The notes below the pieces were generated by a model that did no database searches, was not told where the DNA came from, and saw only the letters and a program-made list of their open reading frames with translations. Below are positions 1-14,722 of a stretch of DNA of 15,910 nt, in pieces. The DNA is taken from the UHGV virus genome UHGV-0065555. One strand, written 5' to 3'. This DNA comes from a virus. Each line of letters opens with the position of its first letter. The stretch's first letter is position 1. Made by a program: the position numbers and the translations under genes.

Positions 1-2315
1 CAGGAACACGCGCGGATGGCGTCGCGTTCAGCATCGAGCAGGGTGCGGCGAACAATATCCTGCTGGCAAATGGCGGCGTGTTAACCGTGGAGTCAGACAC
101 CTCTTCTGACAAAACACAGGTCAATATGGGCGGACGGGAGATCGTCAAAACAAAAGCCACTGCGACAGGCACGACGCTCACCGGCGGTGAACAAATTGTC
201 GAGGGTGTGGCGAATGAGACAACAATTAACGACGGCGGAATACAAACAGTTTCAGCTAACGGAGAGGCAATAAAAACAAAGATCAATGAAGGCGGTACGC
301 TGACAGTCAACGATAATGGCAAAGCGACAGATATCGTCCAGAACAGCGGTGCCGCTCTCCAGACGAGCACGGCTAACGGTATTGAAATCAGCGGTACTCA
401 CCAGTACGGTACTTTTTCCATTTCCGGCAATTTAGCGACCAATATGTTGCTGGAAAATGGCGGTAATTTATTGGTATTAGCAGGTACCGAAGCTCGCGAC
501 TCCACGGTTGGCAAGGGTGGGGCAATGCAAAACCTGGGTCAGGACTCCGCCACAAAGGTTAACTCTGGCGGGCAATATACCCTTGGGCGGTCAAAAGATG
601 AGTTTCAGGCTCTGGCCCGGGCAGAAGATCTCCAGGTCGCTGGCGGTACGGCAATCGTCTACGCAGGTACGCTGGCGGATGCATCGGTCAGTGGCGCGAC
701 AGGAAGCCTGTCGTTAATGACGCCACGGGATAATGTTACGCCAGTTAAACTCGAAGGGGCGGTCCGGATTACCGATAGCGCGACATTGACTCTGGGAAAT
801 GGCGTCGATACCACGCTTGCCGACCTGACGGCTGCCAGCCGGGGCAGTGTCTGGCTTAACAGCAATAATTCCTGTGCAGGTACCAGCAACTGCGAATATA
901 GAGTAAACAGTTTGCTACTCAACGACGGTGATGTTTATTTGTCAGCACAAACAGCAGCGCCTGCCACAACTAACGGTATCTACAATACGCTGACAACCAA
1001 TGAACTTTCCGGTAGCGGTAATTTCTACCTGCATACCAACGTTGCAGGCTCCCGGGGCGATCAACTGGTCGTCAACAACAACGCCACTGGTAATTTTAAA
1101 ATCTTTGTTCAGGATACCGGCGTCAGCCCACAGTCTGACGACGCGATGACGCTGGTGAAAACAGGGGGAGGGGATGCTTCGTTTACGCTGGGCAATACCG
1201 GCGGTTTCGTTGATCTTGGGACCTATGAGTATGTCCTGAAAAGTGACGGCAACAGCAACTGGAACCTGACCAATGATGTAAAACCCAACCCGGACCCCAT
1301 CCCAAATCCAAAGCCAGACCCAAAACCCGATCCAAAGCCAGACCCAAATCCAAAACCAGACCCTACTCCCGATCCAACGCCGACACCCGTTCCGGAGAAA
1401 CGCATTACGCCTTCTACGGCAGCCGTACTCAATATGGCAGCAACATTACCGTTGGTATTTGATGCTGAGCTAAACAGTATTCGCGAGCGGTTGAACATAA
1501 TGAAAGCGAGTCCACACAACAATAATGTCTGGGGGGCGACGTATAACACCCGTAATAATGTCACCACCGATGCGGGTGCCGGGTTTGAGCAGACGCTGAC
1601 CGGAATGACAGTGGGGATCGACAGCCGTAATGATATTCCTGAAGGAATTACCACGCTAGGCGCTTTTATGGGCTATTCCCATTCACATATCGGTTTTGAT
1701 CGCGGAGGACATGGCAGTGTGGGCAGTTATTCTCTGGGCGGCTATGCCAGTTGGGAACATGAAAGTGGTTTCTATCTGGACGGTGTCGTGAAGCTGAACC
1801 GTTTTAAAAGTAACGTAGCAGGTAAAATGAGCAGCGGTGGAGCCGCCAATGGCAGTTACCACAGCAACGGGCTGGGCGGTCACATTGAAACCGGGATGCG
1901 ATTTACCGATGGTAACTGGAACCTGACGCCGTATGCATCGTTAACGGGGTTCACCGCTGATAACCCCGAATATCATTTATCCAATGGCATGAAATCGAAA
2001 TCAGTCGATACCCGCAGTATATATCGTGAACTGGGCGCAACGCTGAGTTACAACATGCGTCTGGGGAACGGTATGGAAGTTGAGCCGTGGCTGAAGGCGG
2101 CTGTGCGCAAAGAATTTGTCGATGATAACCGGGTGAAAGTGAATAGTGACGGTAATTTCGTCAATTATTTGTCGGGCAGACGTGGAATATACCAGGCAGG
2201 TATTAAAGCCTCATTCAGCAGTACGTTAAGCGGGCATCTTGGGGTGGGGTATAGCCATAGTGCCGGTGTGGAATCCCCGTGGAACGCGGTAGCTGGTGTG
2301 AACTGGTCGTTCTGA
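1..2315 (+). CDS. Type Va (AIDA-I/Ag43-like) autotransporter adhesin, 3' portion; 5' end lies outside the window
   Basis: Reading frame is open from the window edge (codons at 3,6,9...), so the GTG at 78 in the ORF track is not the true start. Passenger region is G/T/N/V-rich with recurring GG-x-x-V/T repeats typical of beta-helical passengers; Pro-rich linker PNPDPIPNPKPDPKPDP...; C-terminal beta-barrel segment ends ...AGVNWSF (aromatic terminal residue). Followed by a hairpin terminator. Confidence 0.85.
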   Translation, partial: GTRADGVAFSIEQGAANNILLANGGVLTVESDTSSDKTQVNMGGREIVKTKATATGTTLTGGEQIVEGVANETTINDGGIQTVSANGEAIKTKINEGGTLTVNDNGKATDIVQNSGAALQTSTANGIEISGTHQYGTFSISGNLATNMLLENGGNLLVLAGTEARDSTVGKGGAMQNLGQDSATKVNSGGQYTLGRSKDEFQALARAEDLQVAGGTAIVYAGTLADASVSGATGSLSLMTPRDNVTPVKLEGAVRITDSATLTLGNGVDTTLADLTAASRGSVWLNSNNSCAGTSNCEYRVNSLLLNDGDVYLSAQTAAPATTNGIYNTLTTNELSGSGNFYLHTNVAGSRGDQLVVNNNATGNFKIFVQDTGVSPQSDDAMTLVKTGGGDASFTLGNTGGFVDLGTYEYVLKSDGNSNWNLTNDVKPNPDPIPNPKPDPKPDPKPDPNPKPDPTPDPTPTPVPEKRITPSTAAVLNMAATLPLVFDAELNSIRERLNIMKASPHNNNVWGATYNTRNNVTTDAGAGFEQTLTGMTVGIDSRNDIPEGITTLGAFMGYSHSHIGFDRGGHGSVGSYSLGGYASWEHESGFYLDGVVKLNRFKSNVAGKMSSGGAANGSYHSNGLGGHIETGMRFTDGNWNLTPYASLTGFTADNPEYHLSNGMKSKSVDTRSIYRELGATLSYNMRLGNGMEVEPWLKAAVRKEFVDDNRVKVNSDGNFVNYLSGRRGIYQAGIKASFSSTLSGHLGVGYSHSAGVESPWNAVAGVNWSF
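1282..1395 (+). repeat. Short tandem codon repeats encoding a Pro-rich (P-D/N/K/T-P) linker inside the autotransporter
   Basis: DNA reads cc(a/c)(a/g)a(c/t)cc repeated; protein reads PNPDPIPNPKPDPKPDPKPDPNPKPDPTPDPTPTPVP. Confidence 0.6.
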
Positions 2316-2325
2316 CCATCAACGA

Positions 2326-2349
2326 AAAAGCCCACATCTGTGGGCTTTC
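2326..2349 (+). terminator. Rho-independent terminator after the autotransporter gene
   Basis: aaaaaGCCCACatctGTGGGCttt: GC stem, short loop, T-run, 10 nt after the stop codon. Confidence 0.6.
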
Positions 2350-2475
2350 ATGTTACCAGGAGCCGCGGCTCCTTTGCGTATCCTTTTATGTCTCCTCACC
2401 GTCTGGTCGGTGTTTTGCTGAGACTTCTAACTTCCTGTTTTTGTTGGTGTTGTCCTTACACCGTCCAATCATGAT

Positions 2476-2520
2476 TGGTGGAGCTGGCGGGAGTTGAACC
2501 CGCGTCCGAAATTCCTACAT
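2476..2520 (-). other. Prophage attachment-site core: 45-nt copy of the 3' end of tmRNA (ssrA), T-arm plus acceptor 3' strand
   Basis: TGGTGGAGCTGGCGGGAGTTGAACCCGCGTCCGAAATTCCTACAT is the reverse complement of the tmRNA 3' terminus as I recall it (...GGACGCGGGTTCAACTCCCGCCAGCTCCACCA). The match stops abruptly at 2520 and no full tmRNA body follows, so this is a partial att copy, not the gene. Confidence 0.7.
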
Positions 2521-2605
2521 ACCATTTTTACTATAATAAAAACATGTATTTATCTTTAAAATTAGTGTGTTAGTATTATTGTGTATTTGCTTGTTTTACC
2601 TATTT

Positions 2606-3667
2606 TTAATGCTCTGCCGCCAAAGTGCCGCCATCATCAACTGTCACCGGTTTCTCCATTACGTATGCTGACCATTCAGGAGAATAGAATGGTTGCAAAA
2701 ATTTAGAAAATTGTTCTGTATCAAATTTAATTTCACCAATGTACAAGTAGTTATATATATTACTGTAGTTTTGAAGCTGAAATCCGTAAGCTAGTTTTAA
2801 TATCTTTTTAGATAGATAAAATGCAGCCTCAAGTGATTCGGCTAACATTGATTCTGTGGGGGTGAACGTTCTTATTTTAGTGCCGTTGATTTTTAACTCT
2901 ATATAGGCTATTGAGATACAATCTACGCATAAAGTATCTAATAATTTAGCTATGTTATATGAAATTGTATTTAATCTGGTAAGGTGATCTTCTGCATTTG
3001 AATGGGGTGTAACCTTATCTTTTGATAAGTTATTATTAATGGTATCTAGGATTGACAATATACTTTTTTTAAAGTTCTCGTCTGGTGAATAATTGGATGT
3101 GATATCCATTGACGATTCTGTATATATATTGGAATATAATAAGTATGGGTTTGAGATTTTAATTTCATGAGTTGTTAGTATTTTAATTTTGTTGCTATCA
3201 TTGTAATTATAATATTTTGATGCGTCATCTACAAAGCTTTGCATCGTAAAGCTTGATATTTCTTTAATTTTATCTACGAAATTTTTCTCATGAGCAAAAT
3301 GTCTATCGATTGCATTTTTGATTTCAGATGAATTAATTTGTGCTTCGGTTTGTATCGTTCTGTGAATGTTATTTACTATGGAAGCTAATGGTACAGAACT
3401 TGCGAGTATCAATAATGGGAATTTGCTTATCTCATAGAATCTGGCATATCCGTGAGCAGAAAGAACAGGTATTTTACCAAACCATGCAAATGCTCCAAAA
3501 TAAATGAATGACAGCAGTGGTACTGCAATTGAAATCCAAAATAATTTCTGTTGAAATAAATTTCTTTTATCGAGAATGTACCACTTTTTATATATTGATA
3601 CAAACGCAAAAAGAATAATTGCCAAAATATACACAATAATTCCAGTAAAGCTAGTATTAATGTTCAT
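2606..3667 (-). CDS. AT-rich predicted membrane protein (moron) between int and att; function unknown
   Basis: 353 aa; two to three N-terminal hydrophobic helices (FTGIIVYILAIILFAFVSIY, LFWISIAVPLLSFIYFGAFAWF) then an N/K/I/Y-rich soluble region. Very AT-rich versus neighbours. Its ATG overlaps the int stop (ATGA on the minus strand). Confidence 0.55.
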   Translation of the reverse strand: MNINTSFTGIIVYILAIILFAFVSIYKKWYILDKRNLFQQKLFWISIAVPLLSFIYFGAFAWFGKIPVLSAHGYARFYEISKFPLLILASSVPLASIVNNIHRTIQTEAQINSSEIKNAIDRHFAHEKNFVDKIKEISSFTMQSFVDDASKYYNYNDSNKIKILTTHEIKISNPYLLYSNIYTESSMDITSNYSPDENFKKSILSILDTINNNLSKDKVTPHSNAEDHLTRLNTISYNIAKLLDTLCVDCISIAYIELKINGTKIRTFTPTESMLAESLEAAFYLSKKILKLAYGFQLQNYSNIYNYLYIGEIKFDTEQFSKFLQPFYSPEWSAYVMEKPVTVDDGGTLAAEH

Positions 3668-4686
3668 ATAATATTTAAATTAAATAGTGGGTTTTTAGTT
3701 ACTGCATCTTCAAGATGCTCTGGTGAAAAATGGGCATAAACCATAGTCATCTTAATATCTGAATGCCCTAAAATATCCCTCAAAACGAGTATGTTTCCGC
3801 CATTCATCATGAAGTGACTGGCGAATGTGTGGCGCAGTACATGGGTGCATTGGCCTTCTGGCAGCTCAATACCCGCGCGTTTAACCGCCCGCTCAAAGGC
3901 TTTTCTACATGGAGTGAATAGCTTCCCTCTGTTTTTGGGGAGTTCATCATACAGATCCTGAGATATCGGCACAGTACGGTTTTTCTTGCCTTTTGTTTTT
4001 GTATAAGTAATTCGGTATTTCGATATTTGATGGCCCTGCAGATTTTCGGCTTCACTCCACCGTGCGCCAGTAGCTAGGCATATTTTTGCAATCATTAGTA
4101 AGCTAGGGCTTTGAGATTCAGCACATGCTGCCAACAGGCGCTTGATTTCGTCCGTGGAAAGAAAAGCCAGCTCACCTTCGGCAATTTTGAAGGTCGGAAG
4201 TCCTGCCAGCGGGTTTGGTGCTGACCAGTGTCCTAGTTTTTTTAATGTACCGAACACAGATGATAGATTGCGCTGTTCAAGGTTTACCGTGCGGGGCTTA
4301 ACGGGCGACATAAGCGTGCCATCTTCATTTCGTATTTCACCTTTTAACCGTGCTTCGCGGTATTTTGTAAAGTCACCAGCTGTCAGTTCTGAGGCGATGG
4401 GATCGCCTAGACCATTACAGATAATTCTAAGTTTCGCCATGAGGCGCTTGGGGTCTGCGAGTGTTTGACCATACAGGGAATACCAAAGCTCAATTAATTC
4501 TGATAGGCGTCGCCGATCATCCTTTTCACCCAACCACGGTTTTTTATTCACTTCTTCCATTGTGAAGCTTTCAAACGCAATGGCTTCGCCTTTCGTGGCA
4601 AATTGCTTACGCACGCGCTTGCCATTGCGTCCATTGGGATAGCACTCACACAACCATTTTCCGTTCGGCTGTTTTCTGATGGTCAT
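3664..4686 (-). CDS. int: Tyrosine recombinase / integrase, P2 family
   Basis: 340 aa; N-terminus MTIRKQPNGKW...YPNGRNGKRVRKQF and C-terminal catalytic region ...ATGARWSEA...HVLRHTFASHFMMNGG...LGHSDIKMTMVYAHF closely resemble P2 Int as I recall it (R, H-x-x-R and Y motifs present). Confidence 0.9.
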   Translation of the reverse strand: MTIRKQPNGKWLCECYPNGRNGKRVRKQFATKGEAIAFESFTMEEVNKKPWLGEKDDRRRLSELIELWYSLYGQTLADPKRLMAKLRIICNGLGDPIASELTAGDFTKYREARLKGEIRNEDGTLMSPVKPRTVNLEQRNLSSVFGTLKKLGHWSAPNPLAGLPTFKIAEGELAFLSTDEIKRLLAACAESQSPSLLMIAKICLATGARWSEAENLQGHQISKYRITYTKTKGKKNRTVPISQDLYDELPKNRGKLFTPCRKAFERAVKRAGIELPEGQCTHVLRHTFASHFMMNGGNILVLRDILGHSDIKMTMVYAHFSPEHLEDAVTKNPLFNLNII

Positions 4687-4687
4687 A

Positions 4688-5320
4688 TCAAAGGCTCTTA
4701 ATGATTTTCAGTGCGCGGCCTACTACCTCAATGTCATCCAGACCGCACTCAAACGATGAATCATCCTGATGCACTACTAATTTGTTTCCCGGGAGTCGAG
4801 TCAATTTAACGATGCTTTTTATCCCGTCGATATCGACTAACCACATACCATTTACTGGTGGTGTTTGGTTGCGATCTATTAAATAAGAATCACCAGAAGT
4901 AGTCACCAGCAGTAGGTTGCTTGAGTCTGAGGGGAGTATGCTGCTATCAATGATTGCTTTTCCAGCATCGACCAATAAACCACCGTTGAGAGTCGCCTTG
5001 TCAATTTCAGGAGATACTAGTTCAGAAAGAGGTACAACCTTGCTGGAGTTCACGGAATTGATATTTTTTTTAGGTTCAATGTTTGGACCTGGCTCCCCCT
5101 GTCCGGTGGTTAGCCACAGTAAAGAAACTCCTGTTTCCAAGGCGCACTGAATCACCCACTCTGCAGGAAAACTATCTCTTAAGTATCTGTTTGCCATGGT
5201 GCTTTTTGATGCGCCTAAGTGATCGCAAAGTTGCTGTCTGGACTTGAAATCATAGGCTGCCATTAGTCTATGGATAGCCTCTCTTCCCCCTGTATTCTCT
5301 CCAACCTTTACCTGTATCAT
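4688..5320 (-). CDS. cI: CI-type immunity repressor (186-like), N-terminal HTH
   Basis: 210 aa, divergent from the Cox/Apl-like gene and adjacent to int as in 186. HTH-like segment SRQQLCDHLGASKSTMANRYL; AGGA RBS 7 nt upstream of the ATG at 5320. Identification rests on position and architecture, not on an alignment. Confidence 0.6.
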   Translation of the reverse strand: MIQVKVGENTGGREAIHRLMAAYDFKSRQQLCDHLGASKSTMANRYLRDSFPAEWVIQCALETGVSLLWLTTGQGEPGPNIEPKKNINSVNSSKVVPLSELVSPEIDKATLNGGLLVDAGKAIIDSSILPSDSSNLLLVTTSGDSYLIDRNQTPPVNGMWLVDIDGIKSIVKLTRLPGNKLVVHQDDSSFECGLDDIEVVGRALKIIKSL

Positions 5321-5337
5321 TTTTTAATCCTGTTGGC

Positions 5338-5384
5338 GTATCAAATATTGGATCGTAGTATCTCGATGTATCAAATATTGAATC
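5338..5384. promoter_or_regulatory. Operator-like direct repeats in the cI / apl divergent promoter region
   Basis: GTATCAAATATTGGATC at 5338-5354 and GTATCAAATATTGAATC at 5368-5384, 30 bp apart centre to centre, each with an AATATT palindromic core. Confidence 0.4.
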
Positions 5385-5439
5385 AAGTAAAACGAGATAA
5401 AACGACGTAAACCAAACCTTAATCGGGAGATACTGCACT

Positions 5440-5682
5440 ATGAGCACTGATATTTCAATTCGTGTACCAAAAGAGATGGCTACGCCTGCAGAGTTCGCGG
5501 AATGGGAAGGTATCTCCCGCGGCTCCGTGTATCAAAAAATTCACCATGGTCAGCTTGCTAAATACATGGTCAAGAAAGAAAAAAACAAAGGCCGCGTAAG
5601 CCTGCGTTATTTAATGTACAAAACCGATCAGGTCCGTGAATCCCTCGGTCATTCCAACTTCCGCGTCATTGTTGGTAAGTAA
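5440..5682 (+). CDS. Cox/Apl-like small HTH excisionase-regulator
   Basis: 80 aa; TPAEFAEWEGISRGSVYQKIHHGQL resembles the P2 Cox HTH (..EFAKLIGKSTGAVRRMIDKGKL..) as recalled; first gene of the rightward early operon; GGGAG RBS. Confidence 0.6.
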   Translation: MSTDISIRVPKEMATPAEFAEWEGISRGSVYQKIHHGQLAKYMVKKEKNKGRVSLRYLMYKTDQVRESLGHSNFRVIVGK

Positions 5683-5714
5683 GTTCAATTATGAGAACTT
5701 TCTAAGGGGGTAGC

Positions 5715-6224
5715 ATGTTTGATTATAAGATTTCCAAACACCCGCATTTTGATGAAGCCTGTAGAGCTTTTGCACTTCGTCACAATATGGCGAAGCTGGC
5801 AGAACGTGCAGGAATGAATGTCCAGACTCTGCGAAACAAACTCAACCCAGATCAACCGCATCAGCTCAATGCGCCAGATATCTGGCTACTTACCGATCTG
5901 ACGGAAGATTCAACGCTGGTAGACGGTTTTCTGGCACAGATTCACTGCCTGCCATGTGTACCGATTAATGAGGTGGCAAAAGAGAAACTGCCACATTACG
6001 TCATGAGTGCAACCGCAGAGATCGGGCGTGTTGCTGCAGGTGCGGTATCTGGCGATGTAAAAACCAGTGCAGGTCGTCGTGATGCTATCAGCAGCATTAA
6101 CTCTGTTACACGACTGATGGCGTTAGCTGCTGTTTCATTGCAGGCCCGTTTACAGGTTAATCCTGCGATGGCAAGTGCAGTTGATACTGTAACTGGCCTC
6201 GGTGCTTCATTCGGTTTGCTGTGA
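5715..6224 (+). CDS. cII: CII-type transcriptional activator (phage 186 CII-like)
   Basis: 169 aa, the same length as 186 CII, in the same position directly after apl; strong RBS AAGGGGG. Sequence similarity is from memory only. Confidence 0.7.
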   Translation: MFDYKISKHPHFDEACRAFALRHNMAKLAERAGMNVQTLRNKLNPDQPHQLNAPDIWLLTDLTEDSTLVDGFLAQIHCLPCVPINEVAKEKLPHYVMSATAEIGRVAAGAVSGDVKTSAGRRDAISSINSVTRLMALAAVSLQARLQVNPAMASAVDTVTGLGASFGLL

Positions 6225-6231
6225 GGTGCTT

Positions 6232-6432
6232 ATGCTGACGAAAGAACCATCATTTGCATCGCTGCTAGTAAAACAAAGTCCGGCAATGCACTACGGTCAC
6301 GGCTGGATCATGGGTGAGGATGGTAAACGCTGGCATCCGTGCCGTTCGCAAGATGAATTGTTGGCAGAACTATCAACGAAAAAACGGGGGAACAAATGGC
6401 TATTGAAGGCGCTGCGGCGACTGTTCCATTAA
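6232..6432 (+). CDS. Small early-operon protein, function unknown
   Basis: ATG at 6232 preceded by a GAGGTG RBS that overlaps the cII stop; the ORF-track start at 6202 is probably a non-ATG artefact. Confidence 0.45.
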   Translation: MLTKEPSFASLLVKQSPAMHYGHGWIMGEDGKRWHPCRSQDELLAELSTKKRGNKWLLKALRRLFH

Positions 6433-6737
6433 GCCCAGGTGAACGCCTGAATGGACTTAATCATATTGCGGAATTAAGGGCGAAAGTATTTGGCCTGAAT
6501 ATTGAGTCAGAGCTTGAGCGGTTTATTAAAGATATACGTGATCCACGGGATGTTAATTATGAACGAAATAAACGAGCACTGGCTGCTATATTCTTTATAG
6601 CAAAAATTCCAGCTGAACGTCATAGCATCAGCATTAATGAGCTGACCACTGACGAAAAGCGGGAGTTGATTAAAGTAATGAATCATCTTCGTGCAGTGGT
6701 GAGCTTATTTCCCAGACGGCTAGCCATGCCGAATTAA
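6396..6737 (+). CDS. Hypothetical early-operon protein
   Basis: 113 aa; ATG at 6396 with a GGGGGA RBS; overlaps the previous ORF by 37 nt. Confidence 0.45.
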   Translation: MAIEGAAATVPLSPGERLNGLNHIAELRAKVFGLNIESELERFIKDIRDPRDVNYERNKRALAAIFFIAKIPAERHSISINELTTDEKRELIKVMNHLRAVVSLFPRRLAMPN

Positions 6738-6804
6738 CCAATTAATGAAATTCATGGCGTAAACCCGCCGGGCATTCCTTTATCTAAATTCAGGAGAATT
6801 GATT

Positions 6805-7038
6805 ATGCGTAATATTGAAACCCTCTCGACTAAAACCGGACCGGATGACGCAGGACTTAATATTTTACTGACAGAGGCTCGTCTGGAAGAACGTCGGGCA
6901 AGAGCTGAAGCAATGGCAGCTCGCCTTGATAGCCTTGCGTGCCATATCACATCCCGCCAGCTAAACCACGTTGAAGCGGCTGAACTGCTGCGTGTGGCAG
7001 CTGAAGCAATCCAGAACGAAGCGCAGGAGATCCACTAA
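6805..7038 (+). CDS. Hypothetical small alpha-helical protein
   Basis: ATG at 6805 preceded by an AGGAGA RBS; the ORF-track start at 6799 is TTG. Stop overlaps the next start (TAATG). Confidence 0.5.
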   Translation: MRNIETLSTKTGPDDAGLNILLTEARLEERRARAEAMAARLDSLACHITSRQLNHVEAAELLRVAAEAIQNEAQEIH

Positions 7039-7265
7039 TGGCTGATGCAATGGATCTCGTACAGCAGCGCGTTGAAGAAGAACGCCAGCGTCATATCCGT
7101 GCTGCCCGTGCCAAAACGCCGGGCGTGTCCCGCGTGCTTTGCATTGAGTGTGAAGCGCCAATTCCGCCAGCACGCCGCCGTGCCATTCCGGGTGTGCAGC
7201 TTTGCATTACCTGTCAGGAAATCGCAGAGCTGAAAGGCAAACATTACAACGGAGGTGCTGTATGA
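7038..7265 (+). CDS. TraR/DksA-family C4 zinc-finger protein
   Basis: 75 aa with CIECEAPIP...CITCQ (Cx2C...Cx2C) after a coiled-coil-like N-terminus; position matches the TraR-like ORF of P2/186 early operons. Confidence 0.7.
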   Translation: MADAMDLVQQRVEEERQRHIRAARAKTPGVSRVLCIECEAPIPPARRRAIPGVQLCITCQEIAELKGKHYNGGAV

Positions 7266-8119
7266 GCACCATCCTGAAATGGGCGGGAAATAAAACCGCC
7301 ATTATGTCCGAACTGAAAAAGCATCTTCCTGCTGGCCCGCGACTGGTTGAACCTTTCGCGGGTTCCTGTGCAGTGATGATGGAGACGGAGTACCCCAGCT
7401 ATCTTGTTGCGGATATTAATCCTGATTTAATCAACCTCTATAAAAAGGTTGCTGCTGATTGTGAATCGTTTATATCTCGCGCCAGAGTTTTATTTGAGAT
7501 CGCAAACAGGGAGGTGGCTTATTACAACATAAGGCAGGAGTTTAATTACTCAACTGAAATTACTGATTTCATGAAAGCGGTATATTTCCTGTATCTCAAT
7601 CGTCACGGTTACCGTGGTTTATGTCGCTATAACAAGAGCGGGCATTTCAACATTCCCTACGGTAATTATAAAAATCCGTATTTCCCTGAAAAAGAAATTC
7701 GCGCATTTGCAGAAAAAGCCCAGCGAGCAACGTTTATCTGCGCCAGCTTTGATGAAACGCTGGCGATGTTGAAGGCAGGGGATGTGGTGTATTGCGATCC
7801 GCCGTATGACGGTACGTTTTCCGGCTATCACACTGATGGTTTCACTGAAGATGACCAGTATCACCTGGCATCCGTTCTTGAACATCGGTCATCAGAAGGA
7901 CATCCGGTCATTGTTTCTAACAGTGACACATCCCTGATCCGTTCGCTGTATCGCAATTTTACTCACCACTATATCAAGGTAAAACGCAGCATCGGTGTGG
8001 CAGCTGGCGAGGGTAAATCAGCAACAGAAATCATTGCTGTTTCCGGGCCGCGCTGCTGGGTGGGATTTGATTATTCGCGTGGCCTGGATAGTTCTGCCGT
8101 GTACGGAGTACGTGCATGA
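7262..8119 (+). CDS. dam: DNA N6-adenine methyltransferase, Dam/D12 class
   Basis: Start [11 protein letters not shown] at 7262 (ATGA overlap with the upstream gene). SAM-binding motif EPFAGSCAV and catalytic DPPY motif ([10 protein letters not shown]). Confidence 0.85.
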
Positions 8120-10530
8120 GCCATGCCGATATGAACAACTGCTGCGGCTTTAACGAGGCTGCCGCAGCGTTCTCATGGAACAGCCCGAAAAAGGCCATTA
8201 ACCCTTATCTGGACCCGGCGGAAGTTGCGCCGGTTTCTGCGCTTTCAAACCTGATCGCTCTGTACGCTGCCGATAACGAGCAGGAACACCTGCGCCGCGA
8301 GGCACTGAGTGATCAGGTCTGGGAGCGTTATTTCTTTAATGAATCCCGTGATCCTGTCCAGCGCGAAATGGAGCAGGATAAGCTCATTAGTCGGGCAAAG
8401 CTGGCGCATGAGCAGCAGCGTTTTAATCCAGATATGGTCATTCTGGCGGACGTCAATGCCCAGCCTTCCCATATCAGCAAGCCGCTGATGCAACGTATTG
8501 AATACTTCAGCAGCTTGGGCAGGCCAAAGGCTTATTCCCGCTATTTGCGTGAGACGATTAAGCCATGTTTGGAGCGACTGGAGCATGTACGCGACAGCCA
8601 GCTATCTGCATCTTTTCGTTTTATGGCAAGCCATGTAGGGCTGGACGACCTGCTGATTCTGCCTGAAATGAGTCAGGATCAGGTGAAACGCCTGTCTACT
8701 CTTGTCGCTGCGCATATGAGCATGTGTCTTGATGCCGCTTGTGGTGATTTGTACGCCACCGATGATGTTAAGCCAGAAGAAATCCGCAAGACATGGGAAA
8801 AGGTGGCAGCAGAAACCCTGCGACTGGATGTTATCCCGCCTGCGTTTGAGCAACTTCGTCGGAAAAGAAACCGCCGTAAACCCGTGCCCTATGAACTCAT
8901 TCCGGGTTCGCTGGCGCGTATGTTGTGCGCCGATTGGTGGTACCGGAAATTATGGAAGATGCGTTGCGAATGGCGGGAAGAGCAGTTGCGTGCTGTTTGC
9001 CTGGTCAGCAAAAAAGCATCTCCCTATGTCAGCTATGAAGCCGTGATGCATAAACGTGAGCAGCGCCGTAAGTCGCTGGAGTTTTTCCGTTCTCATGAAC
9101 TGGTGAACGAAGACGGCGACACGCTGGACATGGAGGATGTGGTAAACGCCAGCAGCAGCAACCCGGCGCATCGCCGCAATGAGATGATGGCCTGTGTTAA
9201 AGGTCTGGAGCTTATCGCAGAAATGCGCAGTGACTGTGCCGTTTTCTACACTATCACCTGTCCGTCGCGTTTCCATTCCACGCTCAATAACGGCAGACCA
9301 AACCCGACCTGGACAAACGCGACGGTAAGACAAAGCAGCGATTATCTGGTCGGCATGTTTGCTGCATTTCGTAAGGCTATGCACAAAGCCGGGTTGCGCT
9401 GGTATGGCGTGCGGGTGGCTGAACCGCATCATGACGGCACAGTTCACTGGCACCTGTTGTGTTTCATGCGCAAAAAAGACCGCCGCGCCATTACTGCATT
9501 GTTGCGTAAGTTTGCCATCCGTGAAGACCGCGAGGAGCTGGGCAATAACACGGGGCCACGCTTTAAGTCTGAGCTGATAAACCCGCGCAAAGGTACGCCA
9601 ACAAGCTACATCGCGAAATACATCAGTAAGAACATTGACGGGCGTGGTCTGGCTGGCGAGATCAGCAAGGAAACGGGTAAATCCCTGCGTGATAACGCTG
9701 AATACGTTAATGCCTGGGCGTCTCTGCATCGTGTTCAGCAATTCCGCTTCTTTGGCATTCCGGGGCGTCAGGCTTACCGTGAACTGCGATTGCTGGCTGG
9801 TCAGGCGGCAAGGCAACAGGGGGACAAAAAAGCAGGTGCGCCGGTACTGGATAACCCGCGCCTTGATGCAATCCTGGCTGCTGCTGATGCTGGTTGTTTT
9901 GCCACCTACATCATGAAGCAGGGCGGCGTACTGGTTCCCCGCAAATATCACCTCATCAGAACTGCTTATGAAATCAACGAAGAGCCGACCGCCTATGGCG
10001 ATCACGGTATTCGTATTTATGGCATCTGGTCACCCATTGCAGAGGGCAAGATCTGCACTCATGCGGTGAAGTGGAAAATGGTTCGTAAGGCCGTTGACGT
10101 TCAGGAGGCGGCAGCCGACCAGGGCGCTTGCGCCCCTTGGACTCGTGGCAATAACTGTCCCCTTGCTGAAAATTTGAACCAACAGGAGAAAGATAAATCA
10201 GCTGATGGGGACCCCAGAACGGACATTACCCGCATGGATGACAAGGTGTTGCACGATTACCTGCACAGTATGAACAAAAAGGAGCGCCGGGAATTGGCTG
10301 CAAGGTTACGTCTGGTGAAACCGAAACGGCGTAGAGACTACAAACAGCGAATTACAGACCATCAACGACAGCAGCTCGTCTATGAACTGAAATCCAGAGG
10401 ATTTGATGGCAGCGAGAAAGAGGTCGATTTACTCCTTCGCGGCGGCAGTATTCCGTCAGGAGCAGGCCTGCGTATCTTCTATCGGAACCAGCGTTTGCAG
10501 GAAGATGATAAGTGGCGGAACCTGTATTAA
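8116..10530 (+). CDS. A: Replication initiation endonuclease gpA (rolling-circle HUH nuclease)
   Basis: 804 aa; tandem-tyrosine motif YIAKYISK and histidine-rich H-x-H region (HHDGTVHWH); start overlaps the dam stop (ATGA). Size and position match P2/186 gene A. Confidence 0.85.
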
Positions 10531-10624
10531 TTACGCTGGTTAACAATTCGTGCTCTTAATAATATCAGGCATATCAGGCTGATAAGCGTAAAAAAAAACG
10601 TTTTACATCAGTAAGATTATTATA

Positions 10625-10644
10625 TACTGTAAATATAAACAGTG
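10625..10644 (+). promoter_or_regulatory. LexA (SOS) box overlapping a candidate -10 element
   Basis: TACTGTAAATATAAACAGTG fits CTGT-N8-ACAG with an AT-rich spacer; lies about 40 bp upstream of the ATG at 10686; a TTTACA -35-like hexamer sits upstream. Confidence 0.6.
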
Positions 10645-10685
10645 GTTATACATACAGTATTGCGTGTGGTGTCATAGGAGGAAAG

Positions 10686-10874
10686 ATGCAGGACTATTTT
10701 TTGGAGTCTTTGAAGCTCCAGCGCATTGATTTTTTTCTTAAGCTTGTAGCGGCTAGTGAGTGCGATGATGAAGAGAAGCGGCTTGCTATCCAGTGGGTTT
10801 CGGAGCTGACCGATGAGTTAATGGCGAAAATCCGTACTCATGAGTACAACCGTTCAATGGATCTCCCCGGTTAG
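10686..10874 (+). CDS. Small acidic protein under the putative LexA-controlled promoter
   Basis: 62 aa; AGGAGG RBS 4 nt before the ATG; followed by an imperfect hairpin at 10891-10923. Confidence 0.45.
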   Translation: MQDYFLESLKLQRIDFFLKLVAASECDDEEKRLAIQWVSELTDELMAKIRTHEYNRSMDLPG

Positions 10875-11459
10875 GCTTAGAAACGTTGCTGGCGTTAGGA
10901 CTTGATTCTGACGCTAGCAAGGTTGATCAACGAGCCATGCGAGGCGTTAGTCATGGGCAAAAAAATAGTAACTTCCAGATTTTGCTTCGTGCCAGGTATT
11001 GAGTAGTTTTATCGCCAGAGGGGCTGTTAGCGCTCAAACTACTAATGGAGCCACACCTTAGATGAGTGATTTGGCTTAAGCTATGATTATATAGTTTCGC
11101 TGTACGGCGGCCTTGCTTTTTATTGAAGCGACCAGACTGGAACAACGGCGAAAGGAGACTAACGATACGCACCAGTTTTTTGAAAAGGTACAGTTATCTA
11201 GATTGGTTGCCAATTTTCGTTGAAACCTGACATACCATTAGGTCATTGCTTTAGAAAAATTAATACTTGATGTGAGAATTGCTTCAAAACATCTAGAATT
11301 AAAGTTTCTTTACTAGTATGCTTCATCACTTGGTCGTTGGGTTGAGTGCAAAAGCTAAGGCTGATGCCCAGTACGCTATCCGCATTATTGCCAGAGAACC
11401 GATTCGAAACCGGAATCTGGCAGAGCATGGGCGCAAGTGCTGGCTTCCCAACGGCCTCG

Positions 11460-12428
11460 TTATTTATAATATGCTGACTTCAAAACCACTCGTCTTTCAA
11501 CCTGCTGTGATAGCATTACCGCGTTAGTCCAATCTTTTGGATACCTTATTTCTTCTATAACACGAATATAAGCACATACTTTATTTTTTCCCTCTCCTTT
11601 GGCATAAGTAACCTCTAGATTATTAAATTTCAATAAGTGCTCTCTTCTTTGGTAAGTAAAACAGCCGTAATCACGGACATCAGAAGAAGTAATAGCATGA
11701 GTTGAAGGAAACCGAACTAGTAAATTTCTCAAGTAGGGAATAATGTCCAAACTCGTTGCTTTGTTTTCTTCTCTGCGACTCTTTCTGAACATATGTCTCC
11801 AACCCAGCCGTGTAAGCTCGATTTTCCCAAGCACCGGAGATGTGATTTCTTTCTGTTCAGAATAACGTTTTTTAACAAACGCTCGCCGATTATTAAGTAG
11901 TGAGTTTCTTCTTCTTACATGGATTCCTTTTGCTCCAGTTTCACCTGCACGTACCATGGACATACAGCGAGCCAGGTCAAACCGTGTGGCCGGAGTGATT
12001 AAGTGATATTCTCCATAAGTTTGGTTTTTAAGGGTAGTGTTTGGATGTATATAGGCCCAAAATGCTTTACGATTAGTTCTGTCAACCCAAACGACACATA
12101 TATGGTGAGTTGTCCTTTTGGCTGCTTTTTTTGCGGCCGAATTTAATACAAAACCTTTCTCTAATAAATGACCATAAGTTGCCCCTGATTTAACTTGCGA
12201 TAATATAAGCATTCTTTCTTTTGATGCCCATGGATGTTCGAAGGATAATATTAAATCTATTTTTGAATTGTCGTCTTCCCTGGAACCCCAGTGCCCCTCT
12301 CCTCTACAAGCAAGAATGAATTGACTCATTGCATAAGATTCGGCGTCACTGCCGTTAACTGAGTTAAACTGTCTTGTTTCTAGCACAGTTGGTATTGGTC
12401 GTGATGCAAGTAAACTGAAAGATCCCAC
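11460..12428 (-). CDS. AT-rich cargo protein of unknown function, possible PD-(D/E)xK-like nuclease fold
   Basis: 322 aa; GTG start at 12428 with a GGAGAG RBS 8 nt upstream (first in-frame ATG would be at about 12329). Strongly AT-rich relative to phage core genes. N-terminal segment KIDLILSFEHPW...LILSQVK could be a degenerate D...(E/Q)xK motif, which is speculative. Basic C-terminal region. Confidence 0.55.
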   Translation of the reverse strand: MGSFSLLASRPIPTVLETRQFNSVNGSDAESYAMSQFILACRGEGHWGSREDDNSKIDLILSFEHPWASKERMLILSQVKSGATYGHLLEKGFVLNSAAKKAAKRTTHHICVVWVDRTNRKAFWAYIHPNTTLKNQTYGEYHLITPATRFDLARCMSMVRAGETGAKGIHVRRRNSLLNNRRAFVKKRYSEQKEITSPVLGKIELTRLGWRHMFRKSRREENKATSLDIIPYLRNLLVRFPSTHAITSSDVRDYGCFTYQRREHLLKFNNLEVTYAKGEGKNKVCAYIRVIEEIRYPKDWTNAVMLSQQVERRVVLKSAYYK

Positions 12429-12501
12429 TTATAGTTCTCTCCAAAAAATTGCATAATCTTGAACGCTAAAAAATAGTATACAAACTAAAGTATTTTTTCA
12501 T

Positions 12502-12720
12502 TTAATTCAATGTATTGGCTAAAATTAAGACATTTATAGCTATATGTACTAGATAACATAGCGTTGTTTTCCTTTTGAAATCTCTTCTTGTGGTAACACA
12601 ACAGTATTTACTCAAGTAGTTTGTCACTGCATGGGGAGATTTTGCTATGTCCGCGGCATCATACAGATGCGATAGATTTTCAGCATGACCTTGGGTAGCA
12701 AATCTGTAGGTATCATCCAT
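12502..12720 (-). CDS. Small hypothetical protein upstream of the 322-aa gene
   Basis: 72 aa; ATG at 12720 with a GAGGTG RBS 2-3 nt upstream; no recognisable motif; may be spurious. Confidence 0.3.
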   Translation of the reverse strand: MDDTYRFATQGHAENLSHLYDAADIAKSPHAVTNYLSKYCCVTTRRDFKRKTTLCYLVHIAINVLILANTLN

Positions 12721-12860
12721 TGCACCTCAAAGTAACTCTGGTGCATACCTATGCTGCATGAAAATGAATGATCGCTAGTGGATCGTTTAAGTCGAAGCCT
12801 GCCAGTTCTGACGAGCTTTTGCTTATGTTATGCAACTGCATGAAAACCACTACACAAAGC

Positions 12861-12890
12861 GGGCAGGCGTGGCGGGGATACGAGCGCGCG
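12861..12890. other. Candidate cos (cohesive-end) site of the prophage
   Basis: GGCGTGGCGGGGATACGAGCGCGCGCT at 12867 resembles the P2/186 cohesive-end region as I recall it (P2 GGCGAGGCGGGGAAAGCAC, 186 GGCGTGGCGGGGAAAGCAT); it lies between A and Q where cos is expected. Match is partial and from memory. Confidence 0.35.
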
Positions 12891-13036
12891 CTAAGTCATA
12901 TAAGAGTTATATATTGATTTGATTGCTGGACATGCATACAGTATCGCTCTATCATCTAATAAATCTTAGAGTATTTGGCAATGTTTGGATAAAATGGAAC
13001 CTAACTTATTCATAATCCGCTAAACAGGGATGTCAG

Positions 13037-13951
13037 ATGCCATACCAATTGGTAGAGCTTAGCCCCGTAGCTAACGATCTTGAACAGTTAGGAACCAAAG
13101 AGAAGTTTTGGTTCTATTTCTCCGATGACACTGTAAATTTGCAGTTGTTTAAGTACTCTAGGCCAGGTACTGGCGAGCATTGGTCTGAAAAGTGTGCTGC
13201 TGAGTTATGTCATTTGCTTAACATTCCACATGCTAGCTATGATTTGGCGCGATACAATGGTCGATTCGGTGTGGTGACTCAGAATATCATTCCATCTGGT
13301 TTCCGGATGGTAATGGGAAATGAAGTGCTTCACAGTTCGACATTCGATTATCCTGGGCCTTTACAAGCCGGGGAAAAGCCGGTAAGGGTCAGAGAACACA
13401 CTGTCACAAGGGTATTGGGTTGTTTGGATAGGGAATCTATCAAGCCTCCTCCGAGTGTATATGATCTAACCGGGCTAAATGCAGCAGATGTATTTTGTGG
13501 ATATTTGATGCTCGATGCACTTGTGAGTAATCAAGATCGCCATCATGAAAATTGGGCGATCATGCTTAACAATGAAACTGGTGAGCAGTTTTTGTGTCCA
13601 ACATACGATCATGCCGCTAGTTTAGGAAGGGAGATGTTAGATGATGAGCGTAACGAACGGCTTAATACTAAAGATAAAAATCGACAAATCCCATGTTTTG
13701 TAAGAAAAGCTCGCTCTGAGCTATTCAAAGCAAAAACTGATAAAAAGCCCTTGCTGACCGTTGAAGCATTTCAACATGCAGTTGAAGGGAGAGTTGCCGC
13801 TCGCGACCATTGGTTAGGTAAGTTGAGCGTTTTAACAGAAGATTCCATTACAGATGTGTTTAACCAAGTGCCTTCATCGTGTATATCCGACAGTGCACGT
13901 AGATTTGCAACGTTAATGGTAATGGAAAATCGCAGAAGGTTACTAGAATGA
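13037..13951 (+). CDS. HipA-family Ser/Thr kinase, core kinase domain only (HipT-like)
   Basis: 304 aa. Gly-rich/ATP loop LGTKEKF (HipA ..AGAQEK..); catalytic loop LVSNQDRHHENWAIM (HipA ..GATDGHAKNFSV..); Mg-binding CPTYD (HipA ..TPFYD..). Lacks the HipA N-subdomain. AGGGA RBS. Confidence 0.8.
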   Translation: MPYQLVELSPVANDLEQLGTKEKFWFYFSDDTVNLQLFKYSRPGTGEHWSEKCAAELCHLLNIPHASYDLARYNGRFGVVTQNIIPSGFRMVMGNEVLHSSTFDYPGPLQAGEKPVRVREHTVTRVLGCLDRESIKPPPSVYDLTGLNAADVFCGYLMLDALVSNQDRHHENWAIMLNNETGEQFLCPTYDHAASLGREMLDDERNERLNTKDKNRQIPCFVRKARSELFKAKTDKKPLLTVEAFQHAVEGRVAARDHWLGKLSVLTEDSITDVFNQVPSSCISDSARRFATLMVMENRRRLLE

Positions 13952-14688
13952 CTAATACAAACTCCGTTTACGTCGCATGGCAGGCACCAGATACCAGAGA
14001 CTGGCATGTTGTTGGTAACTTGCAAGAGCGCAAATCGGGGTATGTTTTCAGGTATACCAAAGGTGCTCTTAAATCTACTAAATTTACAAAGTTTAGCGGC
14101 ATGAGTGATGTTCGTGAAACTTATGTTTCGGAAGAATTGTTTCCTCTTTTTAAAAATCGCCTTTTATCACCGAGACGTCCAGAGTATCCGAGTTTCATTA
14201 AATGGCTTGGATTTGAAGAAGATAAGGTAAATCCTATCGATATTCTTGCTCGCTCGGGAGGCTTACGAAGCACTGATCAGCTGCAGATTTTCAAAAAAAT
14301 TGATGTTGATTCTGATGGTAACTTTGAGCATTTTTTCTTCTTACATGGACTTGGTTACTTAAATAGCTTAGCTAATGCTCGTGTATCTGAATTGAAACCG
14401 GGGCAAATTTTGCGTCTTTGCTTGGATCTTCAAAATGAATACGATGGGGATGCTGTTGTCGTTCGTGCAGATAAACCAGCTGAAATCGTTGGTTACTGCC
14501 CTAGGTATTTAAGTAATGATATCAAGAAGATGTTATTGGATGATCCAAAATCAATCACTTTAACGGTCGAAAAGATTAGCGATGATGCTCCTCATAACTA
14601 TCGGTTATTATGTAAATTATCAGGAGTACTAAGCCAAGCCTGTCAATCGACGCTGATTCCTCAGGATGAGTTTGAACCTATTGAGTAA
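13948..14688 (+). CDS. HipA N-subdomain-like (HipS-like) protein fused to a C-terminal HIRAN domain
   Basis: 246 aa; ATG overlaps the kinase stop (ATGA). N-terminal part aligns by eye to HipA residues about 10-100 (VGNLQERKSGYVFRY vs VGELTKLANGAHTFKY; LFPLFKNRLLSPRRPE vs FNFFDNLLPDSP; DILARSGG vs DLLSEIGRD). C-terminal part GQILRLCLDLQNEYDGDAVVVRADKPAEIVGYCPRYLSNDIKKMLL fits the HIRAN consensus. Confidence 0.7.
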   Translation: MTNTNSVYVAWQAPDTRDWHVVGNLQERKSGYVFRYTKGALKSTKFTKFSGMSDVRETYVSEELFPLFKNRLLSPRRPEYPSFIKWLGFEEDKVNPIDILARSGGLRSTDQLQIFKKIDVDSDGNFEHFFFLHGLGYLNSLANARVSELKPGQILRLCLDLQNEYDGDAVVVRADKPAEIVGYCPRYLSNDIKKMLLDDPKSITLTVEKISDDAPHNYRLLCKLSGVLSQACQSTLIPQDEFEPIE

Positions 14689-14694
14689 ATGAAG

Positions 14695-14718
14695 AAAAGC
14701 CACCAAACGGTGGCTTTT
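14695..14718. terminator. Bidirectional rho-independent terminator shared by the convergent HipS-HIRAN gene and Q
   Basis: aaaaGCCACCaaacGGTGGCtttt: perfect 6-bp GC stem flanked by an A-run and a T-run. Confidence 0.65.
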
Positions 14719-14722
14719 CTTA

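Follow-up and report, generated by a model that had tools for sequence, protein, structure and literature searches.

The attachment site of P2 and 186 phages consists of a core and arm-type sites for the integrase (Int), with IHF and Cox/Apl as accessory factors. Binding to core and arms has been described for P2-like integrases, and two Salmonella phages, SopEPhi and Fels-2 (Felsduovirus), integrate into ssrA (PMC3448106). The ssrA gene is a hotspot for integration of multiple elements (PMC10121019). Elements with a P2-type integrase, Fels-2 and SopEPhi among them, keep the sequence CGCCAGCTCCACCA in their distal copy of the ssrA end (PMC10107115, Table 1). The distal copy of CP4-57, a cryptic P4-type island of K-12, lacks T357, and excision of that island consequently inactivates tmRNA (PMC10107115).

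We analysed a 15,910-nt stretch of the virus genome UHGV-0065555, hereafter the window. Its positions 2475-2520 are very probably the int-side att junction of a Fels-2/SopEPhi-type, P2-like prophage in ssrA, with chromosomal DNA to the left that includes a candidate ssrA trailer module. The prophage belongs to Peduoviridae (P2-like). A P2/Fels-2-type junction in E. coli ssrA is ordinary and already well described; the site is not new, and nothing new is learned here about ssrA as an integration site. The lead past the textbook is the native downstream flank of ssrA, a conserved structured unit that islands have detached in about half of E. coli. The features at the junction are as follows.

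2475-2520, minus strand: att core, 46 bp, consisting of the displaced 3′ 45 nt of ssrA (2476-2520) and one further shared base.
2465-2478, strand unassigned: palindrome CCAATCATGATTGG, 14 nt, spanning the CCA end of ssrA; native attB sequence.
2521-2640, minus strand: P arm of attP, AT-rich and phage-derived, conserved in Fels-2-type phages up to the cargo gene.
2615-2633, minus strand: tandem direct repeat TGGCGGCA-N3-TGGCGGCA, a candidate arm-type Int-binding site.

The initial annotation had noticed a 45-nt match to the 3′ end of ssrA with a sharp stop on the phage side. The match is exact: the last 45 nt of K-12 ssrA (ATGTAGGAATTTCGGACGCGGGTTCAACTCCCGCCAGCTCCACCA), which comprise the T-arm, the 3′ acceptor strand and CCA, equal the minus strand of 2476-2520, and similarity to ssrA is lost abruptly from 2521 onward. 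With up to three mismatches allowed the 45-mer has a single copy in the window, and none was found in 200 shuffles. The block of identity is nevertheless 46 bp (2475-2520) rather than 45, because the base after CCA is also common to attP. The only clear inverted repeat in this core is that of the T-arm, GCGGG-TTCAACT-CCCGC. The palindrome CCAATCATGATTGG is likewise found in empty-site strains.

A four-way alignment was made of attB (strain 720632), attP (phage Cartapus), attL (USMARC-51688) and attR (the window). The flanks are exchanged reciprocally around the 46-bp core, the textbook Campbell pattern. The core is found in the attP of five free phages (Cartapus, SEN8, SopEPhi, RE2010 and Fels-2), and free-phage genomes align to the window only rightward of exactly 2475, ending at ~2634-2640; P-arm matches in E. 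coli prophages have the same exact start and the same end. The exact junction seen in the window occurs in 111 of 5426 complete E. coli genomes. The prophage boundary is thereby fixed to the base, with chromosome up to 2474/2475 and phage from 2521. The repeat TGGCGRCA-N3-TGGCGRCA in the P arm is the only match in the window, where 0.01 matches would be expected. Cartapus, USMARC-51688 and PK5 have one copy per attP arm in the same orientation, and the repeat is present in Fels-2 too. From its position and conservation we infer that Int may bind these arm repeats.

The 45-mer had been taken for the att copy that rebuilds no tmRNA gene, and this reading holds: the fragment adjoins ypjA, and ARAGORN finds no tmRNA gene in the window. 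The Rfam tmRNA model gave no match at gathering score; the best was truncated, with 42.7 bits against 47 required, and its confident alignment was confined to the last ~50 nt. Positions 2476-2520 do not hold both acceptor strands and a tag reading frame, the marks of a functional tmRNA. The ARAGORN result and these sub-threshold Rfam scores led us to reject a tmRNA gene, permuted or not, at 2476-2750. A second ssrA-like sequence, a 16-mer at 6953-6968 with two mismatches, lies inside the DUF2732 gene without wider similarity and is put down to chance. In NZ_CP104112 the equivalent of the window's fragment is annotated by PGAP as a 177-nt tmRNA; annotators should read the 45-mer as an att scar, not as a gene.

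Rightward of the P arm the window holds the following phage genes; those from 4688 onward are assigned from the list of open reading frames and the annotation of related prophages.

2606-3667, minus strand: orf353, a cargo gene in the slot between att and int; membrane-anchored protein, phrog_17460 (function unknown).
3664-4686, minus strand: tyrosine integrase of Fels-2/SopEPhi type, with Pfam domains Int_N and Phage_integrase.
4688-15910: visible remainder of the P2/186-like prophage, from the annotation of F719 (~97% identical) and of the USMARC-51688 relative.
4688-5320, minus strand: CI repressor.
5440-5682: Apl/Cox-like regulator.
5715-6224: CII, followed by genes for Fil, DUF5347, DUF2732 and TraR.
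To 8119: Dam methylase.
8116-10530: gpA replication endonuclease.
10.6-14.7 kb: cargo hotspot between gpA and portal.
14723-15763, minus strand: portal gpQ.

The order int, CI, apl/cox, cII, then gpA, hotspot and gpQ, read from open reading frames and the relatives' annotation, is P2/186-like. At the amino acid level the integrase is 92.3% identical to that of Fels-2, 90.3% to that of SopEPhi, 92.3% to that of SEN8 and 96.7% to those of RE2010 and Cartapus. With Fels-2 and SopEPhi the window shares an orthologous integrase, the ssrA 3′-end target, a similar core length (the Fels-2 record has its attP split as 24+23 nt at its ends, against the 46-bp core here), the wild-type CGCCAGCTCCACCA and a 186-type early region (CI, Apl/Cox, CII, Fil); with Fels-2 it also shares the P-arm repeat motif. 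It differs from these two phages in its E. coli host, in its distal neighbour ypjA and in the cargo of its gpA-portal hotspot. In Fels-2, moreover, int abuts attP directly, whereas here a gene of 353 codons stands between P arm and int. P2 and 186 likewise have an integrase with an N-terminal arm-binding domain (Pfam Int_N) and tandem repeats on both arms, such as the candidate ones described above, but the sequence of the repeat and the target are different.

The attP core and P arm of Escherichia phage Cartapus and of Salmonella phages RE2010 and SEN8 are as in the window; in Cartapus the slot filled by orf353 in the window is occupied by a RES-domain gene. Prophages ~97% identical to that of the window occur in E. 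coli F719, 442/2 and SCU-115. The F719 prophage has the same orf353 and PDC-M03 cargo; unlike the window's it stands in tandem with an island encoding a P4-type integrase instead of adjoining ypjA. For orf353 itself no function could be assigned from family, defence-system or fold matches: searches of Pfam, NCBIfam and PADLOC gave none, its 81 homologues are named ‘hypothetical protein’ at most, and its AlphaFold2 model (mean pLDDT 85.5) matched nothing in PDB or BFVD.

To the left of the core lie the following features.

78-2315, plus strand: 3′ part of ypjA/ehaD, a chromosomal gene for an adhesin-like autotransporter, running off the left end of the window.
2323-2475, minus strand: ssrA 3′ flank module of ~150 nt, a candidate pre-tmRNA trailer and terminator, split from ssrA by the prophage.
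2326-2349, minus strand: hairpin and T-run AAAGCCCACAGATGTGGGCTTTTT (helix 7), with inverted repeat 2327-2336/2339-2348 and a T5 run on the minus strand.
2359-2372, minus strand: palindrome GGAGCCGCGGCTCC (helix 6), with a 5-bp stem and a CGCG loop.
2446-2462, minus strand: helix 3 (GGUGU-AAGGACA-ACACC), in which two pairs have compensatory double changes.

BLAST matches of 78-2315 are annotated as ypjA in complete E. coli genomes. The initial annotation had put ~125 bp between the autotransporter's terminator and the repeat, a distance borne out by the hairpin at 2327-2348, past the ypjA stop codon. It had further supposed that this interval was a junction either with chromosome or with another ssrA-associated island, the latter a sign of tandem occupancy. 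The chromosomal option stands and the island option falls. The alignment it had proposed, of 2316-2475 with prophage-free strains, shows 100% identity to the sequence directly after ssrA. In K-12 the stretch that separates the CP4-57 end from ypjA is identical to this interval as well. A chimeric query that joins the 3′ part of ssrA to the window flank aligns colinearly with 2528 of 5426 complete E. coli genomes, and many of the alignments reach 100% identity; since the 2528 are empty-site genomes, chromosome begins at 2474/2475.

That the 125-160 bp separating the 45-mer from ypjA are a remnant of, or junction with, another ssrA island, with tandem occupancy on the ypjA side, is thus highly improbable. 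Tandem ssrA arrays are real in relatives: in F719 the 45-mer is followed at once by the P4-type-integrase island. Of the 212 genomes with core and P arm, there are ~100 in which these do not adjoin the native flank, and the PK5 ssrA fragment carries deltaT357, a scar typical of CP4-57-type excision. In the window, however, the flank has the full identity to empty-site strains just given and also matches what follows ssrA in other Escherichia species, the stretch from core to ypjA contains no additional copy of the ssrA end, and the fragment is wild-type (CGCCAGCTCCACCA) without deltaT357. The 125 bp are not a junction with another island, and so nothing in them points to tandem occupancy on the ypjA side. 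A tandem array there was accordingly rejected, the sequence being native from 2475 leftward with no foreign DNA and no second ssrA fragment. The end of a CP4-57-type island was rejected as well. CP4-57 has the same ssrA target and an identical distal flank beside ypjA; but it has a P4-type integrase gene, intA, beside the intact ssrA and repeats only ~14 nt of ssrA, with deltaT357, against 45 nt of wild-type sequence here.

Tandem occupancy could stand on the far side, outside the window, where the initial annotation also expected the intact ssrA. The expectation agrees with what related prophages have. In the closest ones, USMARC-51688 and F719, two copies of the core stand ~33 kb apart as direct repeats; of these, one forms the 3′ end of an intact 363-nt ssrA beside smpB and the other is the fragment copy. 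Relative L005 has the identical 45-mer at both prophage ends, and in PK5, too, a second core copy completes an intact tmRNA gene. Later elements between ssrA and the window's prophage seem unlikely to us, if less so than an island on the ypjA side. Because newcomers integrate at the intact copy of ssrA, any later element would sit on the ssrA-proximal side; some genomes have up to 4-5 places matching the query, and ssrA is the multi-element hotspot already mentioned (PMC10121019). Against this, the P2-like element directly adjoins intact ssrA in all three relatives examined (USMARC-51688, PK5 and F719), the F719 array reading ssrA, P2-like prophage, 45-mer, then the P4-type-integrase island. 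The window sequence is silent on the question either way. From relatives only, we infer that the window's prophage, too, would have an intact ssrA at its far end with no further island between.

The integration mechanism proposed here follows Campbell-type recombination as established for P2/186 and for tyrosine integrases. The phage attP would hold 46 bp identical to the ssrA 3′ end between a P arm and a P′ arm, each bearing the tandem TGGCGRCA-N3-TGGCGRCA repeat, and the integrase encoded at 3664-4686 would recombine this core with the identical sequence in ssrA. The body of ssrA would thus be joined to the phage-borne 3′ end, so that the ogr side of the prophage, its far end, retains a complete tmRNA gene; the P′ arm there would supply a hairpin and T-run terminator a few bases past the CCA of the rebuilt gene. 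The expected order at that end is ogr, a 483-nt gene, the P′ arm (GTGGCGGCAAAATGGCGACAG, hairpin and T5), the 363-nt ssrA and smpB. What remains at the int side would be the chromosomal 3′ end of ssrA, at least as far as the crossover point, reduced to a non-functional fragment. Because this fragment is wild-type, precise excision would restore a normal ssrA. The window's prophage should in this respect differ from CP4-57, whose excision inactivates tmRNA (PMC10107115).

Integration would also uncouple the flank module from the ssrA promoter. The module lies downstream of intact ssrA in Escherichia albertii, E. ruysiae, E. whittamii and Pseudenterobacter timonensis. Across Escherichia, Citrobacter and Pseudenterobacter it trails ssrA or a displaced ssrA fragment whatever the next gene, and is kept in all three genera while the DNA past its terminator differs. 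Of 80 metagenome loci, 66 contain the module at full length according to a covariance model (R1), and folding of a single sequence gave a z-score of -3.5. When the sequences are aligned to the structure on which that model is built, pairing is kept in 97.7% of cells, against 43-54% in slid controls. Compensatory cells number 44 against 11.7 in shuffles, none of 500 shuffles reaching the observed value, in a sample of 45 closely related distinct sequences in which the fetch patterns force two blocks to be invariant.

Three hairpins of the module have compensatory base changes, the GGAGCCGCGGCTCC helix among them. The initial annotation had pointed to this palindrome at 2359-2372; it is present and extends to 16 nt (2358-2373). 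Since perfect 14-nt palindromes average 0.995 per window in shuffles, its mere presence is not significant. It is the comparative data, not the statistics, that show a maintained hairpin and led us to reject a chance feature: in helix 6, 4 distinct sequences have U-A in place of the closing C-G pair, and 6 have G-U in place of the outer G-C. In helix 3 one pair switches from GC to AU (11 sequences) and another from UA to CG or AU (13 sequences). The stem of helix 7 changes from GCCCAC/GTGGGC to GCCCGC/GCGGGC, again compensatory, in other strains and species, and this helix stays with ssrA even where the next gene is not ypjA. Helix 7 is most likely the native ssrA terminator, and it can also serve the convergent ypjA.

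On this sequence evidence the flank at 2326-2475 is best read as the native pre-tmRNA trailer with an intrinsic terminator; its place between ssrA and a same-strand hairpin with T-run makes it a candidate for transcription. A 28-codon open reading frame from an AUG just past CCA on the minus strand was rejected, as it has a stop codon in TUM2826 and its substitutions are not codon-like.

The flank could also be a functional RNA beyond a passive trailer and terminator, such as a 3′-ETS sponge or sRNA or a pre-tmRNA processing element, a possibility that we regard as doubtful, though well above either tandem arrangement. Covariation in the two non-terminator hairpins would fit it, as would the order of an A-rich stretch and then the terminator hairpin with its U tail, and conservation of the module in three genera although the DNA past the terminator differs; the sequences are, however, closely related, and the search patterns bias which of them were sampled. 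No variation is seen in the single-stranded block AACAGGAAGUUA, but since this block belonged to the metagenome fetch pattern, only the 13 genome-derived sequences test it. A promoter-like site at 2560-2533 (minus strand) is directed into the module, although such matches are at chance level, 2 found against 1.4 expected. In K-12, genomic SELEX with RpoD places a promoter between ypjF and psaA in the same direction (PMC3946193). The module matched no Rfam family, and literature searches for RNA downstream of ssrA or psaA returned nothing relevant with the terms tried. Since the module is separated from ssrA in roughly half of all E. coli genomes, whatever role it may have must be dispensable.

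The trailer and terminator remain the preferred reading of the flank. 3′ external transcribed spacers of tRNA operons give rise to regulatory RNAs, 3′ETS-leuZ for example. The module resembles such a spacer by analogy only, as a conserved structured segment from a tRNA-like gene to its terminator. Were it a functional RNA, each ssrA-integrated island, the present Fels-2-type prophage included, would switch it off or re-drive it from an outward-reading island promoter.

The 45-mer ATGTAGGAATTTCGGACGCGGGTTCAACTCCCGCCAGCTCCACCA (2476-2520, minus strand) is identical to the final 45 nt of K-12 ssrA. It occurs once in the window with up to 3 mismatches permitted and never in 200 shuffles, and similarity to ssrA ends abruptly at 2521, toward the ssrA-upstream side. 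A further ssrA-end match with 2 mismatches, CCCGCCAGCTAAACCA (6953-6968, plus strand), lies inside the DUF2732 gene, has no extended similarity and is put down to chance. As a tmRNA gene the 45-mer is ruled out: ARAGORN called none in the window, the Rfam search gave no match at or above gathering score, and a relaxed Rfam scan returned a 5′-truncated tmRNA match (42.7 bits versus a cut-off of 47) whose confident alignment covers only the last ~50 nt. At NZ_CP104112.1 (3410318-3410494; 6227-6403 of the extracted locus), the RefSeq/PGAP annotation labels the equivalent att fragment plus P arm, the phage side of the site, as a 177-nt ‘tmRNA’; this label is artefactual, produced by a truncated covariance-model match of the same kind as the window gives just below the Rfam cut-off.

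Right of 2521 the order of ORFs is that of P2/186. The ORF list of the prophage stretch reads:

2606-3667, minus strand: orf353, an AT-rich ORF of 353 aa
3664-4686, minus strand: tyrosine integrase (Pfam Int_N and Phage_integrase)
4688-5320, minus strand: CI repressor
5440 onwards, plus strand: Apl/Cox-like regulator (5440-5682), CII, Fil, DUF5347, DUF2732, TraR, Dam
8116-10530, plus strand: gpA replication endonuclease
~10.6-14.7 kb, both strands: variable cargo region
14723-15763, minus strand: portal gpQ

Prophages of E. coli F719, 442/2 and SCU-115 are 97% identical across 86-95% of this stretch. The window integrase shares 96.7% identity with its counterparts in Salmonella phage RE2010 and Escherichia phage Cartapus, 92.3% with Fels-2 Int and 90.3% with SopEPhi Int. 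The integration site of SopEPhi and Fels-2 is ssrA (PMC3448106, citing Pelludat 2003), and Fels-2 has an annotated split attP (24+23 nt) at its genome ends. Elements with P2 integrases (Fels-2, SopEPhi and SpaX) retain CGCCAGCTCCACCA (PMC10107115, Table 1), as does the window fragment, which is wild-type and without deltaT357. In its anatomy, by its homology to characterised ssrA-integrating P2-like phages, and in every defining feature open to testing, this is an att site in ssrA of the Fels-2/SopEPhi type.

Four sites were aligned: attB from strain 720632, an empty site where ypjA directly follows ssrA; attP from the virion-derived genome of Cartapus; attL from USMARC-51688; and the window. 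attB and attL share their left flank, the ssrA body, and attB and the window share their right flank; attP agrees in its left arm with the phage side of the window and in its right arm with the sequence 3′ of ssrA in the lysogen. A 46-bp core (window 2475-2520) is common to all four. This is the textbook Campbell pattern; together with the exact ssrA 3′ end, it bears out the initial annotation, which took the 45-mer for the att copy that does not rebuild a tmRNA gene. Free-phage genomes show similarity to the window only from 2475 rightwards, to ~2634.

The expectation that an intact ssrA lies at the far end of the prophage, beyond the window, holds in its relatives. USMARC-51688 has a complete 33-kb P2-like prophage with the 45-mer directly repeated at its two ends, one copy closing an intact 363-nt ssrA beside smpB and the other adjoining ypjA; F719 and PK5 likewise have an intact ssrA at the ogr end. 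The phage arm at that end, P′, carries a hairpin and T5 (GGGGTTACGTGAAAGCGTAGCCCCTTTTT) a few bases past CCA, and the phage thus supplies the 3′ end and terminator of the rebuilt ssrA. Each attP arm has one tandem repeat TGGCGRCA-N3-TGGCGRCA, in the same orientation; it is found in Cartapus, PK5, USMARC-51688 and Fels-2 and at 2615-2633 in the window, with 0.01 expected by chance. By position and conservation the repeats make good candidate arm-type Int sites. The established biology of P2/186 and of tyrosine integrases suggests that Int would bind the core and arm repeats and exchange strands inside the 46-bp core, probably assisted by IHF; excision would be directed by the Apl/Cox-like protein (5440-5682) and would give back wild-type ssrA.

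The left flank is native chromosome. Window positions 2316-2475 are K-12 base for base, between the CP4-57 right end and the ypjA stop, and among 5426 complete E. coli genomes, 2528 gave a colinear match, many of them at 100% identity, to a chimeric query (the last 190 nt of ssrA plus this flank). Chromosomal sequence thus begins at 2474/2475. The initial annotation correctly placed the hairpin after the ypjA stop (2327-2348), the ~125-bp spacer between hairpin and repeat, and the palindrome GGAGCCGCGGCTCC (2359-2372); its suggestion that the 125 bp may be a junction with another ssrA-associated island fails, since this DNA is native in K-12 and in empty-site genomes. A tandem array on the ypjA side is rejected on the native flank and on the finding of no further ssrA-end copy between the core and ypjA, and a CP4-57-type end on the wild-type fragment.

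Tandem arrays do occur in relatives. The identical junction (ypjA, flank, core and P arm) is present in 111 of the 5426 genomes versus 212 with core plus P arm, so about half of such prophages lie in other contexts. In F719 (L004 17400-18140, and L009) the order is smpB, ssrA, a P2-like prophage with the same orf353, the 45-mer and then an island whose P4-type integrase is disrupted by IS3, the P2-like phage lying nearest ssrA. The PK5 fragment (L002 ~15230-15275) has deltaT357 and one more mismatch in its final 14 nt. This one-base deletion is that of the K-12 CP4-57 distal copy, and CP4-57 excision is reported to leave exactly deltaT357 in ssrA (PMC10107115); we read it in PK5 as the probable scar of a P4-type island excised from a tandem array behind the P2-like prophage. 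The wild-type window fragment bears no sign of such a history.

Between the P-arm repeats and int lies orf353 (~30-37% GC over the ORF), in a slot that is empty in Fels-2, is taken up by a RES-domain gene in Cartapus, and in USMARC-51688 contains a 40%-identical relative. A 2026 survey counts the att-int interval among the minor P2 defence hotspots (PMC13586616). The confident AlphaFold2 model of orf353 (pLDDT 85.5) has N-terminal helices, which we read as probably membrane-spanning, a long helix and an alpha/beta C-terminal domain; it had no match in PDB or BFVD. The protein had none in Pfam, NCBIfam or PADLOC, and its sole assignment is phrog_17460 (function unknown). Its 81 homologues are all named just ‘hypothetical protein’, and wherever a source is named it belongs to Enterobacterales. 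We regard orf353 as a candidate gene for exclusion or defence. The gpA-gpQ interval, a known hotspot of P2-like phages (PMC9122126), holds a two-gene cassette on the plus strand that matches a PADLOC candidate defence system, PDC-M03A (13037-13951, E = 2e-122, with a weak HipA_C-like match) and PDC-M03B (13948-14688, E = 3e-93, with a HIRAN domain), and a 322-aa ORF (11460-12428, minus strand) with no match in Pfam, PHROGs, NCBIfam or PADLOC.

An arrangement this common (111 genomes with the identical junction), and described in the literature, is already known; the only item beyond the textbook is a conserved, structured module downstream of ssrA (~150 nt, 2323-2475, minus strand). In E. coli genomes that have some neighbour other than ypjA, conservation extends from the ssrA end through the hairpin and T-run, and everything beyond differs. 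A 25-mer from the flank is present in E. albertii, E. ruysiae, E. whittamii, Pseudenterobacter timonensis and two Citrobacter species, and in the first four an intact tmRNA gene ends directly upstream of the module. Of 80 metagenome loci, 66 gave a full-length match to a covariance model of the module built from 9 sequences. Just before the module, there and in genome loci, stands either an intact ssrA or a displaced ssrA end, of which several lengths occur, with at least five kinds in metagenome loci L022-L141:

Displaced ssrA ends upstream of the module
Metagenome (including L022-L141) and genome loci: 45-mer type
Metagenome (including L022-L141) and genome loci: fragment starting at the T-loop
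Metagenome (including L022-L141) and genome loci: 14 nt with deltaT357
Metagenome and genome loci: shorter fragments
Metagenome loci L022-L141: ...CGCCAGCCCAA
Metagenome loci L022-L141: ...CGCCAGCCAA

This variety is evidently the footprint of several integrase families acting at different sublocations of ssrA. Many distal ssrA copies in these metagenome loci are damaged at the acceptor end.

The window has four perfect 14-nt palindromes versus ~1 expected, two of them within the 160-bp flank; since one is expected about once per window, GGAGCCGCGGCTCC is uninformative by statistics alone, and comparison with genomes is what informs. RNAalifold predicted four stem-loops on the ssrA strand of the module. 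Among 45 distinct sequences, which are close relatives aligned by fitting to the model and in which two search patterns force two invariant blocks, standard pairs fill 97.7% of cells versus 43-54% with partners slid 1-3 columns, and 44 cells show compensatory change versus 11.7 in shuffles, with none of 500 shuffles reaching 44. These changes fall in three helices:

2446-2462, ssrA strand: helix 3, compensatory changes
2359-2372, ssrA strand: helix 6, the palindrome GGAGCCGCGGCTCC, closing pair C-G to U-A in four sequences
2327-2348, ssrA strand: terminator stem, GCCCAC/GTGGGC to GCCCGC/GCGGGC

The module had no match to an Rfam family, and with the terms tried we found no paper on an RNA downstream of ssrA. 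We read it as a likely native pre-tmRNA trailer with an intrinsic terminator. Because the T-run is on the ssrA strand, what the initial annotation called the autotransporter terminator is at least as much that of ssrA. A perfect 14-nt palindrome of native attB sequence, CCAATCATGATTGG (2465-2478), spans the CCA end of ssrA, and in precursor RNA could pair this end with the trailer start. In the P arm a promoter-like site, TTTAAA-16-TATTAT (2533-2560, minus strand), is directed through the ssrA fragment into the module, a match at chance level in such AT-rich DNA; RpoD genomic SELEX in K-12 places a promoter between ypjF and psaA, in the same direction and an analogous position (PMC3946193). 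The two are weak pointers to transcription from island ends.
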